From Bacillota bacterium (GTDB lineage: Bacteria > Bacillota > Clostridia > Acetivibrionales > DTU013), in the NCBI GenBank assembly GCA_023435925.1, contig JAEZLF010000152.1, forward strand, positions 5,589 through 69,588: 64,000 nucleotides of DNA. The letters run 5' to 3'. The translations under genes and the position numbers were made by a program. Each line of letters begins with the position of its first letter. The stretch's first letter is position 1. The notes under the pieces were generated by a model that was not told the origin of the DNA, made no database searches, and saw nothing but the letters and a program-made list of their open reading frames with translations. Shown piece after piece: positions 43,198 through 60,147 of this stretch.

Positions 43198-43306
43198 AAG
43201 GAATATGGGGAGGCGCCGGATCGTGTGAAAAGTTCAGGACGCCTCCTCTGCATACAAAATCTCAATTGTTGCTTCACGCAATTGTTGCTTCTACAACAAA
43301 ATTTCA

Positions 43307-43335
43307 TTGACAATGTTTGTAAACCAACATATAAT
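43307..43335 (+). promoter_or_regulatory. consensus sigma-A promoter
   Basis: TTGACA, 17 nt, TATAAT (perfect consensus). Confidence 0.6.
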
Positions 43336-43375
43336 TGAAATGCAATTATGACTATTTTTGAAAGGAGTTGTTTTA

Positions 43376-43411
43376 ATGTCTGTAAAAATAGTAAAGGTGG
43401 TTTTTTACTAA
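43376..43411 (+). other. 11-codon mini-ORF (MSVKIVKVVFY) behind a strong RBS, leader-peptide candidate
   Basis: GAAAGGAG, 8 nt, then ATG. A paralogous arrangement occurs at 59447. Confidence 0.3.
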
Positions 43412-43611
43412 CTGAATATTGGCACGGGAATACAAATGTCCATGAAGCTAACGGCGTTATTTGTATGACCGGTGCAACTCTTTTCGAGCAACCGAGTGGC
43501 AGGGATGAAGCATTGGCTGCATTAACGGACGTATGAACAAGCAGAATTTAAGCATACGGCTGGTTACTGAGTTATTGTTCAGCCTTGAAATGTGTATAAA
43601 ACGTATGGTAG

Positions 43612-43637
43612 ACACGCATTGGTAGCGTGTTTTTTTA
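43612..43637 (+). terminator. rho-independent terminator (hairpin 1)
   Basis: acacgc / gcgtgt stem followed by TTTTTTT. Confidence 0.5.
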
Positions 43638-43669
43638 TTGTATTTTTACTGCTTTTATACTTCTTTCAG

Positions 43670-43702
43670 AAACCCGCAGGTGGTCGTTACCTGCGGGTTT
43701 TT
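43670..43702 (+). terminator. rho-independent terminator (hairpin 2)
   Basis: aaacccgcaggt / acctgcgggttt 12-bp stem followed by a T-run. Confidence 0.65.
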
Positions 43703-43749
43703 GCATGCTTTTTTGGTTGCAGGATGAGAATAATGATAAGGAGTGATGT

Positions 43750-43905
43750 ATGATGAAAAAGAAGAAGAGTGCATTTGATTATATGAAGGAAATACGAAAT
43801 AGTTGGGTGATAAACCCTCGTACCAGAGTACAGGAAAATGAACTGAAGAACAAAAAGAAACGAAGACAGGAAGAAAGAAATTTGACGAAGGATGGGTATG
43901 AATAA
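43750..43905 (+). CDS. small basic protein (51 aa), unannotated in the ORF track
   Basis: AAGGAG RBS 6 nt upstream of the ATG. Sequence MMKKKKSAFDYMKEIRNSWVINPRTRVQENELKNKKKRRQEERNLTKDGYE. The stop overlaps the rsgA ATG (TAATG). Confidence 0.45.
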   Translation: MMKKKKSAFDYMKEIRNSWVINPRTRVQENELKNKKKRRQEERNLTKDGYE

Positions 43906-44975
43906 TGAATATAAAGGATTATGGTTGGAACGAATTTTTTGAACAGGAGTGGAGGGGGCTGGTCGCAGACAAAGTCTGCTGCTCGCCCATGCATCCGGCC
44001 AGAGTTGTGGCGGATTATGGGCAGCGGATCCGAATGGCATCAGACTTAGGAGAACTGGTTCTGAACAGACCGTTGCATAAGTCCGGCAATGGTATGCAGT
44101 TGGCTGTCGGAGATTGGGTTGCTGTTGAGAATGCCGGCGATGCTAATAATGCAGCGATCCGCTTTATATTGGCAAGAAAAACGAAGTTTTCCAGGGCTGC
44201 AGCCGGAGTTGAAGTGAAGGAGCAGATTGTAGGAGCTAATGTAGATATCGTTTTTCTTCTCCAATCTCTTAATAAGGATTTCAATATGAGAAGGCTGGAA
44301 AGATATCTGATTGCGGCATGGGAGAGCGGGGCGATGCCTGTAGTTATACTGACCAAAGCGGATTGCTGTGAGGATATTGCAGAGAAGCTGGCTATCGTCT
44401 ATAACACTGCACCGGGGACGGAAGTTCATGTCATCAGTTGTGTAACCGGTGAAGGAATTGCTGAAATAAGGAAATATTTCGAACAGGGAAAGACAGTGGC
44501 GCTTCTGGGGTCATCCGGTGTTGGCAAATCCACATTGGTCAACACGCTGGTGGGAAAAGAGCTTTTTAAAACCCAGGAAATCCGCGAGGATGACAGCAAG
44601 GGAAGGCACACCACAACTCATAGAGAGCTTCTGCTTTTGCCTGAGGGAGGACTGATTCTTGACACACCCGGAATGCGGACATTGTCGCTGTGGGAAGCAG
44701 ATACAGGGATGGAGATGATGTTTGGCGATGTGGAGGAGCTGATCAAGCAGTGTCGTTTTTATGATTGCAAACATAACAGTGAGCCGGGGTGTGCAGTCAG
44801 AGCAGCACTCCATAGCGGAACACTGGAAATGAAAAGGTGGGAAAGCTGGTTGAAGCTGCAAAAAGAGCTGGTACATCTGGAAGCCAAGAAGGACGGAAAG
44901 CTGCGGCTTCAGGAGAAGAACTGGGGCAAGCAGATTGCAAGGTTTCAAAAGGAACTATATAAGGGGAGGGTATAA
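43905..44975 (+). CDS. rsgA: ribosome small-subunit-dependent GTPase A
   Basis: Circularly permuted GTPase motifs (LTKADC, GSSGVGKSTLVN, DTPGMR) and a C-terminal zinc motif CRFYDCKHNSEPGCAV. Confidence 0.9.
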   Translation: MNIKDYGWNEFFEQEWRGLVADKVCCSPMHPARVVADYGQRIRMASDLGELVLNRPLHKSGNGMQLAVGDWVAVENAGDANNAAIRFILARKTKFSRAAAGVEVKEQIVGANVDIVFLLQSLNKDFNMRRLERYLIAAWESGAMPVVILTKADCCEDIAEKLAIVYNTAPGTEVHVISCVTGEGIAEIRKYFEQGKTVALLGSSGVGKSTLVNTLVGKELFKTQEIREDDSKGRHTTTHRELLLLPEGGLILDTPGMRTLSLWEADTGMEMMFGDVEELIKQCRFYDCKHNSEPGCAVRAALHSGTLEMKRWESWLKLQKELVHLEAKKDGKLRLQEKNWGKQIARFQKELYKGRV

Positions 44976-44976
44976 A

Positions 44977-45966
44977 ATGGATATCAAAATACGAAGTGAG
45001 AGAATTTCGGATTATAACAGTATAGCAAGTATTAATTACGAGGCTTTTCTTGGATGGCATCCCGATAATCCGTATGTTTCAGAACCCATATTGGTGGATC
45101 TGCTCAGACACAATTCAATGTTTGACCCTGAATTATCATTAGTTGCAGAATTTGATGATAAAGTTATCGGACATGTGCTTTTTTCTCCATTCAGGTTTAT
45201 TGTTTTAGGCAGGGAGCAGGTGGGGGTAGTATTGGCTCCCGTGGCTGTGAAACCGGAATTCCAGAATAAAGGTGTAGGAAGTATGCTGATAGAAGAAGGT
45301 CACAAAAGAGCCAGGGAAAAAGGATTCGCTTTTTCCCTGCTTTGTGGACATGTGGAATATTATCCGAGATTCGGTTATAAGACCGGCATGTTTTCACTAT
45401 CCGGAGTTAATGTAAGCATCTGTTTGGAAAGTTTTAATGATGAAGGCTTTCATGAAAGGCCGGTCAATGGGAGGGATACGGAATGGATTTTTGAAGAATG
45501 GAAAAGCCAACATGCATCGGATGCTCTTGCAATATCATCCGGCAAGAATATTAGTGAATGGAGTAATCACAATATGCAATGCCGTTGTTCAGTTATTAGC
45601 AAGAATAACAGAATCTTGGGATATGTCAGATATGCCCGTTCAAAAAGACTGAACATCAAGGAATTGGTGTGTAAGAGTGAGGATATTACGGATATACTGT
45701 CATATCTTGCCTGGAAAAGCTATGGTAGGGCTCAGGGGGAAATGAGCATTGCATTACCTTTTGAAACATTACAAGCATCACTTGGTAATGCCGGTGATTA
45801 CAAAGTAACTGATGAGCGAGTTGCATATAAAGCTTTTATGATAAGGACTCTAGAGTATACGAGCCCTATTGATGAGTATTGTGAAAAAGTTGAAAAAGAG
45901 GTGATAAAGCCCGGCATCATTGCTTTCCCTGCAATGTTTGATGTAGATGACGGGAGGGATGAATAA
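44977..45966 (+). CDS. GNAT family N-acetyltransferase (YhbS-like N-domain plus unknown C-domain)
   Basis: VAVKPEFQNKGVGSMLIEEG acetyl-CoA motif and GHVEYYPRFGY. ATG lies behind GGGGAGGG. Confidence 0.75.
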   Translation: MDIKIRSERISDYNSIASINYEAFLGWHPDNPYVSEPILVDLLRHNSMFDPELSLVAEFDDKVIGHVLFSPFRFIVLGREQVGVVLAPVAVKPEFQNKGVGSMLIEEGHKRAREKGFAFSLLCGHVEYYPRFGYKTGMFSLSGVNVSICLESFNDEGFHERPVNGRDTEWIFEEWKSQHASDALAISSGKNISEWSNHNMQCRCSVISKNNRILGYVRYARSKRLNIKELVCKSEDITDILSYLAWKSYGRAQGEMSIALPFETLQASLGNAGDYKVTDERVAYKAFMIRTLEYTSPIDEYCEKVEKEVIKPGIIAFPAMFDVDDGRDE

Positions 45967-46504: not shown

Positions 46505-46864
46505 ATGGCAGATAATATTTTTGAGTTCATGGAAAAGATGTACGCTGATTTAAAGAGCGATATCAACTCTGTAAAGAGCGACATAAGTTCTTTAAAGAGC
46601 GATATGGTCTCTGTAAAAGGCGACATAAGTTCTTTAAAAAGCGATATCAACTCTGTAAAGGCTGAGCTTAAAGCAGAAATACAGTCTGTAGGTAATCAGG
46701 TTGCAAGACTTGAGAATGACCACGGTAAAAAGCTGGATGCTTTGTTTGATGGTTATAAGCAGTTGGCAGAAGGGCAAGAGGAGTTAAAATCACAGTTGCA
46801 TGATTTGGCTTTAAAGGTAGATAAACAAGAAGTAGAGATCAAAGTTATCAAGGGCGGTAGATAA
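46505..46864 (+). CDS. coiled-coil protein with five perfect heptad (21-nt) repeats
   Basis: GGGGGAAGAGAG RBS. Heptads SDINSVK/SDISSLK/SDMVSVK/GDISSLK/SDINSVK, then a further heptad-like coiled coil. Confidence 0.6.
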   Translation: MADNIFEFMEKMYADLKSDINSVKSDISSLKSDMVSVKGDISSLKSDINSVKAELKAEIQSVGNQVARLENDHGKKLDALFDGYKQLAEGQEELKSQLHDLALKVDKQEVEIKVIKGGR

Positions 46865-46954: not shown

Positions 46955-47285
46955 AAATATATAAAGCAAGGGCATTGATGAGAAGAAGTAAGAATTGATT
47001 GGTTTCTACAGAGAGTTCCCGGTTGGTGAGAGGGGCAGAAAACATCATTCTGAATACATCTCTGAGCTTCACACCGAAAAGAAGGGATGGAAAACGTGTC
47101 TCTCGCTTTAGTAGGCTGTTGACGGAATCCTGCACCCGTTATAGTGCTAGAGGATAACATGCTGTTGCAAGCATTCGTCCTTGATAAGGTCTGCACTGCA
47201 AAGTGCCGGTAAATTGAGGTGGTACCACGGGAACAAGACTCTCGTCCTCTGAGTAATTCAGAAGACGAGGGTTTTTTTATTCTGC
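46955..47285 (+). promoter_or_regulatory. T-box leader (Tyr specifier) with terminator
   Basis: Promoter TTGACA-18-TATACT (46919-46948). AGAGA and GGTGAGA stem I elements. GAA-UAC-A specifier (47055-47057). T-box AAATTGAGGTGGTACCACGG (47211-47230). Terminator 47239-47279. Confidence 0.85.
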
Positions 47286-47358
47286 GGGGAATAATATTTT
47301 CTGTTTTCTGCACATGGGGGTCGGAAAACTGATGCATCAAAATGGCGAAAGGAGCACG

Positions 47359-48579
47359 ATGATGGTTTCAATGGATGAGCAAATTAGAATTATTGCAAAA
47401 GGAGCCGAAGAAATTATTAACACAGATGACCTGAAGAGAAAGCTTGAGAGGTCACAAAAGACTGGAATACCGCTAAAGGTTAAGCTTGGTCTTGACCCGA
47501 CTGCCCCGGATATTCATATCGGGCATGCGGTTGTGCTGCGTAAAATCAAGCAGTTTCAGGATCTGGGGCATAGAGCGGTTATTGTCATTGGGGATTTTAC
47601 CGGTATGATTGGAGACCCTACCGGAAAATCCAAAACAAGAAAGCCGCTGACTCGAGAGGAAGTTATAGAGAATGCTAGGACCTATGAAAGGCAGATTTTT
47701 AAAATACTTGACAGAGAAAAGACAGAAGTCCGGTTTAACAGTGAATGGCTGTCAAAACTGAATTTTGCAGATGTTATCGGTTTGGCCTCCAAGTGCACGG
47801 TTGCAAGAATACTGGAGAGGGATGATTTTCAAAGCCGCTTTCAAGCCCACGAGAGTATTGGGGTTCATGAGTTTTTCTATCCTTTGATGCAGGGCTTTGA
47901 TTCCGTAGAGCTGAAATCAGATGTTGAGCTTGGTGGTACAGATCAGAGGTTTAATATTCTGATGGGGAGAAATCTGCAAAAGGACTATGGACAAGAAAGC
48001 CAGATCGCCTTATTTATGCCTATTCTTGAAGGGACCGATGGAGTAGAAAAAATGAGTAAAAGCCTGGGAAATTATATCGGCATTCATGAGGAGCCAAACG
48101 ATATCTATGGAAAGGTAATGTCGATACCCGACAATTTAATCGTAAGATATTTTATGCTTGCCACCGATATACATCCGGATGAATTAAGCGAAATAAAAGA
48201 AGCATTGGACTCCGGCAAGATGAACCCTCGTGATATGAAGATGAAGCTTGCAAGAGAAATTACAGGCTTATACCACGGATCAGAAGCGGCTGCATTGGCA
48301 CAGGAGCATTTCACAATAGTGTTTCAGAAGCATGAAATGCCGGAAAATGTTCCTGAGTATTGGATTTCCGCAAGCATGTTTGAAAAAGATGAAATTGACC
48401 TTGTGAAGCTGTTGGTACAGATAGGCTTTTCATCAAGCAACAGTGAAGCCAGAAGGCTGATTTCACAAGGAGCCGTAAAAGTGAATGGCAATAGAGTTGA
48501 TGCTTTTAAAGTAAAAGGCCTCTGTGATGGTGATGTGGTTCAGGCCGGCAAGCTCAGGTTCATACGAATCAGAGTCTAG
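47359..48579 (+). CDS. tyrS: tyrosine--tRNA ligase
   Basis: HIGH (DIHIGHAV) and KMSKS (EKMSKSLGN) motifs. C-terminal S4-like domain. ATG lies behind AAAGGAG. Confidence 0.95.
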   Translation: MMVSMDEQIRIIAKGAEEIINTDDLKRKLERSQKTGIPLKVKLGLDPTAPDIHIGHAVVLRKIKQFQDLGHRAVIVIGDFTGMIGDPTGKSKTRKPLTREEVIENARTYERQIFKILDREKTEVRFNSEWLSKLNFADVIGLASKCTVARILERDDFQSRFQAHESIGVHEFFYPLMQGFDSVELKSDVELGGTDQRFNILMGRNLQKDYGQESQIALFMPILEGTDGVEKMSKSLGNYIGIHEEPNDIYGKVMSIPDNLIVRYFMLATDIHPDELSEIKEALDSGKMNPRDMKMKLAREITGLYHGSEAAALAQEHFTIVFQKHEMPENVPEYWISASMFEKDEIDLVKLLVQIGFSSSNSEARRLISQGAVKVNGNRVDAFKVKGLCDGDVVQAGKLRFIRIRV

Positions 48580-53384: not shown

Positions 53385-53715
53385 TAAAAAAGCCCTCACC
53401 TCCAGGATACTATCCTGGGGACGAGAGCATGATACTTCGTGTTACCACCCCGGTTTATTGATACTTCGCAGCATCAACCTCAGTAAGAACTAATGTAAGC
53501 AGATACATCCTTCCAGGCTTACACGCCATTCTCCGGCACGGTAACGGGTGCATACGTTGCAGCCTATAAGCGGAGGGACATATCGTTTGTTCTGCCTCGC
53601 TTATTCGGTGCAATAGCTCCAAGACCATCTTCAGTCAGCTATTCTTTACTCCCTCTCAGCAAACGGAGTTCTCTGTAAAAGACATCCATGACTTACTCTT
53701 CTTTTCATCGCGTTT
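53385..53715 (-). promoter_or_regulatory. T-box leader upstream of metG (minus strand)
   Basis: Minus-strand reading: promoter TTGACT-17-TAATAT (53749-53721). cAGAGAac and gcTGAGAggg stem I elements. AUG in the specifier region (53628-53626). T-box AACCGGGGTGGTAACACG. Terminator ccccaggat/atcctggagg followed by a T-run (53425-53386). Confidence 0.75.
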
Positions 53716-53855
53716 CCAGTTTTTCTCTATATATTAATACGCTTAAAGGTTCAAGTCAATAGGTTGTGAAGGAATTACTTCAAAACCTTTGCCGAATTTT
53801 ACCTCAGATGCTTATGGAGCGGTTCCGGGGTTGGAGAATATAAGCAAACGATGTG

Positions 53856-59097: not shown

Positions 59098-59272
59098 TTG
59101 AGAAGGGAACCTGGCAGGTTTATAATGTAATTGTACATGATGTTGTGTACATTGCGGTATCCGGAGCCGACTTTTGTACAGAAGGGAGTGGTCTGAGTTG
59201 AAGATTGCAATGGAGGTGGCCATTAATTAATGGCCGGAGGCGTGTCAGGCTGAAAGGTCTGACCGCCTTTTT
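59098..59272 (+). ncRNA. orphan promoter-to-terminator unit (about 140 nt), sRNA or cis-regulatory RNA candidate
   Basis: TTGAGA-17-TATAAT (59098-59126). TGTACA occurs three times. An 18-bp perfect palindrome GGCCATTAATTAATGGCC is flanked by GGAGG. Terminator ggcgtgtcag/ctgaccgcc followed by TTTTT (59239-59272). No ORF with an RBS. Confidence 0.3.
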
Positions 59273-59359
59273 GTATATACGCCCGATATGGATCCCGTTC
59301 TGAAACGATAGAGCAGCTTGAAGAAGTCTTAAGCAAAAATGTTTATAACTGTTCTTTCT

Positions 59360-59389
59360 CTTGACTGACAGTAAAATATTGTAATACAA
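59360..59389 (+). promoter_or_regulatory. sigma-A-type promoter candidate
   Basis: TTGACT, 18 nt, TACAAT. Confidence 0.45.
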
Positions 59390-59446
59390 TGGTTATAGGT
59401 ACATGCAAATTATTTTTGAAATCAACACGAAAGGAGTGTTTTAATA

Positions 59447-59482
59447 ATGATTATAGTATGCGTTGAGGTGGCCATCCTTTAA
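59447..59482 (+). other. 11-codon mini-ORF (MIIVCVEVAIL) behind a strong RBS, leader-peptide candidate
   Basis: GAAAGGAG, 9 nt, then ATG. The 5' module is homologous to the one at 43340-43411. Confidence 0.3.
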
Positions 59483-59641
59483 TTGAATAAATGCAAAGCG
59501 TACAGCAGCAGCCATACTCCGGAATTTTGGCCGGTTTGCTTATTATGCCTTTGCATCATCGTTATGTAATAACCCTTAGCCTGATCATGCAGGTGAATGA
59601 AAGAAGTGCGGTAGAGGTTATCGTGCTTTTGTTTTATGTAA

Positions 59642-59703
59642 GGGGACATTTAAAACAGTGTCCTTTTGTAAAACCACAGGTGGTTATTCTCTGTGGTTTT
59701 TTT
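59642..59703 (+). terminator. two consecutive terminator-like hairpins
   Basis: First hairpin: ggggaca/tgtcc(tt) followed by TTTT. Second hairpin: aaaaccacag/ctgtggtttt followed by a T-run. Confidence 0.55.
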
Positions 59704-59725
59704 ATGCCCGGAGAGGTAGATGTGT

Positions 59726-59819
59726 CCGGATAGGGCGATATGCCAGCCGGATAGGGTGATATGCCAGCCGGATAGGGCGATATGCCAGAGAGGCAGGTGC
59801 GCCCGGATAGGGAGATGGG
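59726..59819. repeat. 21-bp tandem repeat, 3 full copies plus 1 partial (CCGGATAGGG[C/T]GATATGCCAG)
   Basis: Full copies at 59726-59746, 59747-59767 and 59768-59788. A partial copy ccggatagggagatggga lies at 59802-59819. Confidence 0.9.
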
Positions 59820-59832
59820 AGTGTGAATCCAA

Positions 59833-60147
59833 TTGAAATACCGAAATGCAAAAGCAATTCTTCCGGAACATCTCTGGAGAGAACTGCAGCAATATGTTCA
59901 GGGAGAAATTATTTATGTTCCGGAGAATAAGCCGATAAGAGCCGGATGGGGCGAGACAAACGGCACAAGGGAAAAATACAGCAGCAGAAATAACGAAATC
60001 ATAATGCTTTACAGAAATGGAGTCAGCAGGGAGGAGATTGCAGAAAAATATCATCTTTCGGAATACAGTATCAAGAAGATCATATACTGCAGTAAGCAAT
60101 TTTATGAAAGAGTAAGTGCGGGTGCCGGAAATCAATTGGTCAAATGA
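59833..60147 (+). CDS. small HTH protein (CD3324/Mor-like family, from memory)
   Basis: 104 aa with a TTG start. ILPEHLWRELQQYVQGEIIYVP...WGE..G.R N-terminus and a C-terminal HTH-like GVSREEIAEKYHLSEYSIKKIIY. Confidence 0.55.
   Translation: MKYRNAKAILPEHLWRELQQYVQGEIIYVPENKPIRAGWGETNGTREKYSSRNNEIIMLYRNGVSREEIAEKYHLSEYSIKKIIYCSKQFYERVSAGAGNQLVK

Follow-up and report, generated by a model that had tools for sequence, protein, structure and literature searches.

The closest described systems to the leader RNA considered here are the rli80/hflXr leader of Listeria monocytogenes and uORFC-6-1 upstream of hflX in Bacillales, both of which are controlled by an upstream open reading frame (uORF) and have been proposed to respond to stalled ribosomes (PMC6310831, PMC8632094). 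A broader group is formed by drug-inducible leader-peptide attenuators, such as ermC/ermB, cat/cmlA, bmrB-bmrCD, tlrB/yxjB, msrD and vmlR, in which the peptide programmes the arrest and the stalled ribosome opens an adjacent hairpin (PMC4191407, PMC6851288, 10.1101/2021.11.29.470318). For the toiL uORF of the Escherichia coli topAI-yjhQP operon, a general role in sensing the translation stress caused by several classes of ribosome inhibitors has been proposed (PMC12121999). In amino-acid leader peptides (trp, his, phe, leu), an intrinsic terminator is coupled with a uORF and with pausing or alternative hairpins. The present analysis concerns element A, a leader preceding a small-protein/rsgA/GNAT operon in a 64,000-nucleotide (nt) stretch of contig JAEZLF010000152.1 from a Bacillota bacterium; this whole stretch is referred to as the window. 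Element A is a real and conserved regulatory leader of cellulolytic Clostridia and is apparently undescribed so far. The reading favoured here, with somewhat more confidence than doubt, is that it acts in cis as a translation-coupled transcription attenuator of this operon.

With rli80/hflXr and uORFC-6-1, element A shares a uORF placed in a structured leader, alternative terminator and antiterminator folds (the latter predicted in element A), and a ribosome-associated GTPase paralogue as cargo. However, it differs from them in several respects: it lacks an RLR motif and is not detectably related to them in sequence or through Rfam; its Shine-Dalgarno (SD) sequence is predicted to be sequestered by a distant 16S-like strand; a second SD occurs within the ORF, at a constant 9 nt before the stop codon; the terminators are arranged in tandem, with the ORF about 200 nt upstream of the terminator; and the cargo is RsgA, a factor of 30S biogenesis, rather than HflX. 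The drug-inducible attenuators likewise use ribosome occupancy of the leader ORF to select among RNA folds and control cargo related to the ribosome or to drug modification, whereas element A is conserved at the nucleotide level and its predicted switch operates through SD sequestration and a distal antiterminator. The toiL uORF, which is also very short, can be regarded as a functional analogue; however, it acts through Rho-dependent termination and exposure of a ribosome-binding site in a proteobacterium, while element A uses intrinsic terminators and has no sequence similarity to it. Unlike the amino-acid leader peptides, element A contains no runs of regulatory codons.

The initial annotation could not assign the element to a known leader family, and this assessment holds, as neither element A nor its second copy near 59.4 kb gave a match in Rfam 15 at the gathering score. 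At this score the only matches in the window were two T-box leaders located elsewhere, one at 46966-47252 on the forward strand, upstream of a tyrosyl-tRNA synthetase-like ORF (47314-48579), and one at 53414-53717 on the reverse strand. When matches with E<=10 were considered over both copies, only weak ones driven by the terminators appeared, including Trp_leader and His_leader at 24 bits, against gathering scores of 41-49. Literature searches returned no described rsgA leader and nothing relevant on CD3324, the protein family encoded behind the second copy.

The features that the initial annotation had listed for element A were all recovered in place in the window sequence, on the forward strand, which also carries the further leader parts and the operon genes described below. 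A sigma-70-type promoter, TTGACA-17-TATAAT (43307-43335), matches the consensus at 12/12 positions in a promoter scan, and a TTGACA...TATAAT promoter occupies the equivalent position in most related loci. It is followed by the SD GAAAGGAG (43360-43367) and, 8 nt further on, by the ATG of the mini-ORF MSVKIVKVVFY* (43376-43411; 11 codons and a stop), within which the SD-like motif AAGGUGG (43394-43400; GAGGUGG in most members) ends 9 nt before the stop codon. Two T-tailed hairpins close the leader, which extends about 360 nt from the promoter. Terminator 1 (T1, 43612-43636; 43610-43636 in the hairpin scan) consists of the arms ACACGC and GCGUGU around the loop AUUGGUA, followed by U7, and its sequence is nearly invariant across the family; terminator 2 (T2, 43667-43707) is a long hairpin of 17 pairs with the core CCCGCAGGUGG...CCUGCGGG, followed by U5. 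The hairpin scan yielded these two T-tailed terminators against 0.6 in shuffled sequences. The tails after T1 and T2 resemble each other (43625-43646 and 43693-43714, 73% identical), with a layout of a U-tract, then AUUGY or GCAUGC, and then a second U-tract; the motif AUGCUUUUUU is kept 3' of T2 in many loci.

Between the mini-ORF and the terminators, the initial annotation had described about 200 nt without a credible ORF. This description needs correcting, as a 62-amino-acid ORF in another frame (43348-43536), which has no Pfam match, overlaps the stretch. Part of the same stretch (43494-43590) is a variable insert bearing P3 hairpins, which is missing from many members; one of its hairpins (43567-43582) shows compensatory changes between the window and locus L060, whose leader is 94% identical. 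Upstream of the -35 box lies a 16-bp tandem duplication, containing the 13-bp exact repeat CAATTGTTGCTTC twice (43263-43275 and 43279-43291), which had been counted as the start of the element. This part of the proposal has to be dropped: L060 has a single 16-nt unit and other loci have none. The repeat in the window is therefore a recent duplication; it is strain-specific and lies outside the conserved leader. Further upstream, a GC-rich hairpin GGGGAGGCGCC...GGACGCCTCCTC (43210-43250), lacking a T-tract and kept in L060, follows a glycoside-hydrolase-like ORF; it might stabilise the 3' end or serve as an unusual terminator.

Related leaders were collected by several routes. A search with RsgA, using one genome per species, yielded 12 Ruminiclostridium-like loci at 56-70% protein identity. 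A leader lies upstream of rsgA in 11 of these 12, ten of them being of the same type as element A (A-type; L001, L003, L004, L006-L012), while L002 carries a leader of the second kind (B-type), then a CD3324 gene, and then rsgA. In L005 (3780-3926) only what looks like a degenerate leader precedes rsgA, reduced to the promoter, an SD remnant and a T1-like hairpin. A metagenome search with a pattern made from both strands of the helix P1, described below, returned 27 loci, 23 of them genuine, and in every genuine locus the leader stands ahead of the 50-amino-acid protein gene and/or rsgA. The other four (L025, L026, L027 and L034) are chance matches in eukaryote-like DNA and were rejected. L036 (2103-2650) also looks degenerate: a full leader abuts the last 99 codons of rsgA, apparently after a deletion. 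Anchoring the search on the small protein added leaders in Oxobacter pfennigii, in a contig resembling R. cellobioparum and in Clostridium thermosuccinogenes. In total, the protein-anchored loci contain 15 A-type leaders with the window and 14 without it, upstream of rsgA and/or the 50-amino-acid protein gene. Viral contigs, scanned for the T2 and B-type ORF motifs, contained nothing beyond chance matches in coding DNA.

The 5' domain of the A-type leaders folds around a long-range helix, P1, visible in the minimum free energy (MFE) fold and as an inverted repeat. Its 5' strand (43358-43371) holds the SD, and its 3' strand (43474-43487) is the pyrimidine-rich anti-SD strand GCAACUCUUUUCGA, which resembles the 3' end of 16S rRNA. 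The helix comprises 12-14 bp and is nearly invariant, with 96.7% of cells paired across 25 sequences; in L010 the strands differ in sequence and still pair. The mini-ORF and the hairpin P2 (43425-43471) both lie within a three-way junction that P1 closes, and part of the ORF is folded as a hairpin by pairing with a conserved AAUAUU 3' of the stop codon. P2 has a variable tip and a recurrent lower-stem mismatch, and 5 of its 9 basal pairs show changes on both sides, that is, compensatory changes. The unpaired junction bases UAAnnnAAUAUUGGCAC and GAGCAACC are conserved at the nucleotide level, and the fold is more stable than that of shuffled sequences (z=-3.9). A resemblance of the anti-SD strand, as GCUUCUUUCGAGCAAC, to the rrn-type boxA site of Nus-factor antitermination (consensus UGUUCUUUGAAAAC in Gram-positives) is loose and explained by SD complementarity, and was judged coincidental or unsupported.

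Directly 3' of P1 lies the hub strand GAGCAACC (43486-43493), an invariant segment of 8 nt that provides the 5' strand of a predicted antiterminator helix, AT1, in which GCAACC pairs with GGUAGC, namely the T1 loop and the first two bases of its 3' arm. An inner helix, AT2, seen in the MFE structures, is predicted between UGUGU (43591-43595; CGUGU in most members) and the 5' arm ACACG of T1, and the motif (A)UCGUGUAUA is conserved. The predicted AT1+AT2 antiterminator would exclude T1, and it appears in most sequences when the segment from the hub to T1 is folded. Over 30 sequences the mean probability of AT1 was 0.66, compared with 0.19 for T1, and in the window AT1 reached 0.98. Within the A-type, one AT1 pair covaries, C-G being replaced by U-A in four sequences. 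Between the types the hub itself differs while complementarity is kept: GCAACC:GGUAGC in the A-type against AUAACC:GGUUAU in the B-type, whose T2 apical loop also carries GGUUAUU. This difference is regarded as the best single argument for pairing between the hub and the terminator. Duplexes of the hub with T2 and with the ORF (GGUGG) are only about 1.5-2 kcal/mol better than in shuffles and constitute a weak lead. A likeness of T2 to 16S helix 45 was likewise judged coincidental or unsupported.

Conservation of the mini-ORF is at the nucleotide level. All 29 distinct A- and B-type elements of one comparison have an SD followed by an ATG-initiated, closed ORF of 9-13 codons. An SD, a start codon and a closed short ORF were seen in every further member examined as well, the longest ORF being that of the B-type L053, with 17 codons. 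A layout common to the A-, B- and C-types (the C-type being a third leader, introduced below) runs from the SD over 7-12 nt to the start codon, followed by 5-7 codons, the motif (G/A)(A/G)GGUG, 9 nt and the stop codon. The spacing from RRGGUG to the stop is 9 nt in all three types, with a few A-type exceptions of 8, 10 or 12 nt; the three leader architectures differ in their RNA folds but have the GAGGUG-9 nt-stop module in common. When the stop codon occupies the A site, 6 nt separate the internal SD from the codon in the P site, a distance like that found at initiation. The 16S anti-SD is complementary in its 5' portion to GAGGUG(A/G)U and in its 3' portion to GAAAGGAG. Judged by these sequence signals, the mini-ORF is very likely translated.

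Whether the peptide itself acts as the sensor is a separate matter. Arrest of the nascent peptide of the erm, cat or HflXr type would mean that the tail E-V-(A/V/I)-(F/L)-x stalls the ribosome in the presence of a particular antibiotic or metabolite, and that the leader, remodelled by this stalled ribosome, lets the operon be induced. Several observations agree with this: the C-terminal residues are the most conserved and the B-type tail E-V-A-F-L shows some synonymous variation (GCC/GCT, TTC/TTT, GTG/GTA), the ORF, with 10-13 codons, is similar in length to those of known arrest leaders, a ribosome GTPase, an Eis-like GNAT and S-adenosylmethionine (SAM)-dependent methyltransferases form a resistance-like cargo, and the hflXr leader with its 14-amino-acid RLR peptide offers a precedent (PMC6310831). 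Other observations count against it. A codon-periodicity test gave entropies of 1.12, 0.96 and 0.92 at codon positions 1, 2 and 3, with no relaxation at the third position. The 'Glu' codon can be GAG, GGG, AAG or AGG, so that the residue is E, G, K or R although GGUG itself does not change, and in L012 and L020 1-nt indels shift the frame so that the retained motif nucleotides are read in another one. In these two loci and in L058, which also has a 1-nt indel, the ORF is still closed by a stop in the second frame (UAAnUGA or UAAUUAA). No known arrest motif, such as RLR, IFVI or +x+, occurs in the mini-ORF peptides, runs of one regulatory codon are missing from the A-, B- and C-type leader peptides, and with about 200 nt between the end of the ORF and T1, steric action would be impossible in the A- and B-types. 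A peptide-specific sensor is consequently not supported by these sequences, and nascent-peptide arrest is considered unlikely.

The second copy reported near 59.4 kb does exist. This B-type leader (59361-59706) lies upstream of a CD3324-family gene (59833-60147) and comprises a promoter (59361-59390), an SD (59429-59436), the ORF MIIVCVEVAIL* (59447-59482), P2 (about 59496-59555), the hub AUAACC (59569-59574), T1 (59606-59635, with GGUUAU at 59616-59621) and T2 (59670-59704, with GGUUAUU at 59682-59688). Leaders of this type also precede CD3324-family helix-turn-helix genes in 7 further contigs (6 distinct sequences), and most B-type loci have no rsgA or mini-protein gene nearby. The two copies had been thought to be similar only at their ends. 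This does not hold, as a covariance model built from A-type 5' domains only aligned the ORF and the following hairpin of the second copy (59436-59559; 35.6 bits, E=1e-6 in a 242-kb search) and found nothing else in the window. The same model gave 63-129 bits for held-out A-types and E values of 8e-9 to 8e-3 for all B-types, which shows that the A and B copies are homologous over the ORF and P2, beyond the ends. Between the B-type T2 and the CD3324-family gene, a 21-nt tandem repeat, CCGGATAGGGCGATATGCCAG, occurs three times (59726-59788); fewer units are found in L050, a close relative, and the repeat is absent from other B-type loci.

Directly upstream of the B-type leader lies the C-type (59098-59273; structure z=-4.2), which has a promoter (59098-59126), a 5' hairpin, an SD (59181-59188) and the TTG-initiated ORF MKIAMEVAIN* (59198-59230; 10 codons, KIAMEVAIx across loci). 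The start codon is TTG or GTG only across loci. A hairpin spanning the stop codon, H1 (59218-59235), covaries across loci (GGCCA..UGGCC to GGCCG..CGGCC) and is abutted by a single terminator (59236-59273). The C-type leader is kept in L002, L050/51 and L053-L056, and in L055 it lies upstream of a DUF218 gene.

The comparison of the three types also bears on a riboswitch-like or protein-binding mechanism, in which the three-way junction would have as its ligand either a small molecule or a protein, such as RsgA, the 50-amino-acid basic protein or a ribosomal protein, whose binding would stabilise P1 and select the antiterminator or the terminator, the mini-ORF being secondary or a regulated output. 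The nucleotide-level conservation, which includes the unpaired junction bases and the recurrent P2 mismatch, the stability of the fold relative to shuffles, and the basic mini-protein as the most constant downstream gene product, which would suit autoregulation, are all in line with such a mechanism. Against it stand the B- and C-architectures, which differ and yet keep the SD-start-GAGGUG-9 nt-stop module, the perfect SD and start codon in all members, the association of B-types with CD3324 and mostly with neither an rsgA nor a mini-protein gene, and the missing match to any Rfam aptamer. A ligand-binding leader is therefore judged improbable.

The distance between T2 and the first gene is informative as to whether the leader acts on the operon at all. 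It amounts to about 45 nt before rsgA in L008, L009 and L035 and about 30 nt before CD3324 in B-type loci; as such short gaps leave no space for a promoter, read-through of the terminators is required. A promoter scan of the window downstream of T2 found none. A conserved G(A/T)GGAAYNNTAAT-like motif was seen by eye between T2 and the small ORF (43722-43737 in the window; 9760-9775 in L003) and occurs in A-type loci with short and with long spacers; it is not recognisable as a sigma-70 promoter. That the leader is instead an independent small gene, producing an RNA of about 270-360 nt that ends at T1 or T2 and possibly serves a dual function with its 11-amino-acid peptide while rsgA has its own promoter, is highly improbable: the strong promoter, two efficient-looking terminators, a T2 that always folds, and gaps of 150-250 nt in L001, L003, L006, L007, L011 and L059, where the GGAAYNNTAAT motif could be part of a promoter, would fit it, but the gaps of 30-45 nt elsewhere, the empty promoter scan and the same-strand upstream position kept with three kinds of downstream gene do not.

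Translation-coupled attenuation thus remains the favoured explanation, and folding calculations suggest its polarity. In full-length simulations the fold changes only when a ribosome covers the SD or the start codon, and this mostly raises T1; in the window, equilibrium folding increases the probability of T1 from 0.25 to 0.92. In a local model, engaging the anti-SD strand in P1 lowers the mean probability of T1 from 0.47 to 0.23, a decrease shown by 18 of 21 sequences. According to the proposed mechanism, ribosomes and the intramolecular anti-SD strand would compete for the SD. If the SD is empty when the anti-SD strand is made, P1 would form, followed by the antiterminator, and the polymerase would read through T1. 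The SD could be empty either because few initiation-competent 30S subunits are available or because a ribosome is held within or at the end of the approximately 11-codon ORF, leaving no room for a second. Since either cause would give read-through, the leader could serve as a general sensor of translation stress. Continued ribosome loading, in contrast, would leave the anti-SD strand free, so that T1 forms and transcription stops. At the stop codon, a terminating ribosome is probably retained by the GAGGUG located 9 nt upstream, and the occupancy of the leader would be set in this way. T2 would constitute a second brake, apparently unconditional and perhaps leaky, or else relieved by some factor; candidates are CD3324, the basic mini-protein and a hub strand that leaves T1 for T2. 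An output that combines a divergent RsgA with modifying enzymes and the basic mini-protein fits a translation-stress response, by analogy with the HflXr leader.

Several points weigh against this mechanism. One concerns T2, whose folding probability is at least 0.94 in the ribosome-free leader and for almost all ribosome positions simulated; no alternative pairing of T2 and no consistent ORF spanning T1 and T2 were found that would account for passage of the polymerase through T2. The ribosome-dependent attenuator of the initial annotation is borne out in part: the conserved same-strand, promoter-proximal leader, the uORF, the terminators and a predicted T1 antiterminator agree with it, while T2 has no predicted alternative structure. 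The polarity, moreover, derives from equilibrium folding, not from co-transcriptional kinetics, and a minority of sequences give a mixed picture. As P1, T1 and T2 hardly vary, the structure taken as a whole shows weak covariation (7 double-change pairs against 4.6 in shuffles), and about 20 of the sequences were selected by a pattern that fixes both P1 strands. Translation of the mini-ORF is deduced from its signals only, codon periodicity being missing from the substitution patterns. Finally, to judge from the geometry of the C-type, a ribosome dwelling on its stop codon would block the neighbouring terminator by covering its base; as this points to a different mechanism, a single polarity for the whole family is not established. 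The signal common to the family may be the dwell time at the stop codon.

A more specific and rather doubtful version of the attenuation model holds that the leader gauges translation-competent 30S subunits, or the status of termination and recycling, by means of a mimic of the 16S 3' end that competes for the SD and a second SD that holds the terminating ribosome, and in this way decides whether rsgA and the genes associated with it are transcribed. If true, the supply of ribosomes would feed back homeostatically on their assembly or rescue, with the SD-start-GAGGUG-9 nt-stop module reused in three architectures with different genes.

The first regulated gene (43750-43905) encodes a Lys/Arg-rich protein of 50-51 amino acids (51 in the window), which is the most constant downstream gene of the A-type leaders; it has 185 related protein clusters, all without a name, and no Pfam or NCBIfam match. 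It is followed by rsgA (43905-44975), identified by Pfam RsgA_GTPase (5.7e-51) and TIGR00157 (164.8 bits, cutoff 100). The window RsgA scores 106-118 bits against most solved RsgAs, with B. subtilis YloQ at 106 and a few lower; this similar distance to most of them suggests a divergent paralogue. A look-up of the exact protein found no identical entry on record. The third gene (44977-45966) encodes an Eis-like GNAT acetyltransferase, which NCBIfam places nearest to Eis and AAC(6'), and is found in only some A-type operons. In Clostridium thermosuccinogenes (L058, 2501-4213), an A-type leader and the 50-amino-acid protein are followed by two generic class I SAM-methyltransferases that replace rsgA, and in L059 (3778-4635) one such methyltransferase follows rsgA; the cargo of the leader can therefore be described as modular. 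Beyond the operon, a 119-amino-acid ORF (46505-46864) has no obvious link to the leader; the heptad-like motif SDI(S/N)S(L/V)K recurs in it, which suggests a coiled coil.

The element A family is a new, conserved family that varies the known theme of uORF attenuation. It adds a leader family absent from Rfam to the few ribosome-associated GTPase paralogues subject to uORF attenuation, for which HflXr is the precedent, and its fixed internal SD before the stop codon and its SD sequestered by a 16S-like strand are features undescribed for known attenuators. The family points to a translation-stress regulon composed of a divergent RsgA, a ubiquitous 50-amino-acid basic protein and CD3324-family regulators, whose proposed hosts are cellulolytic and anaerobic-digester Clostridia (Ruminiclostridium, Acetivibrionales, Oxobacter). 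If RsgA rescues or re-matures 30S subunits in these organisms under antibiotic or assembly stress, this would represent a new route to resistance or tolerance.

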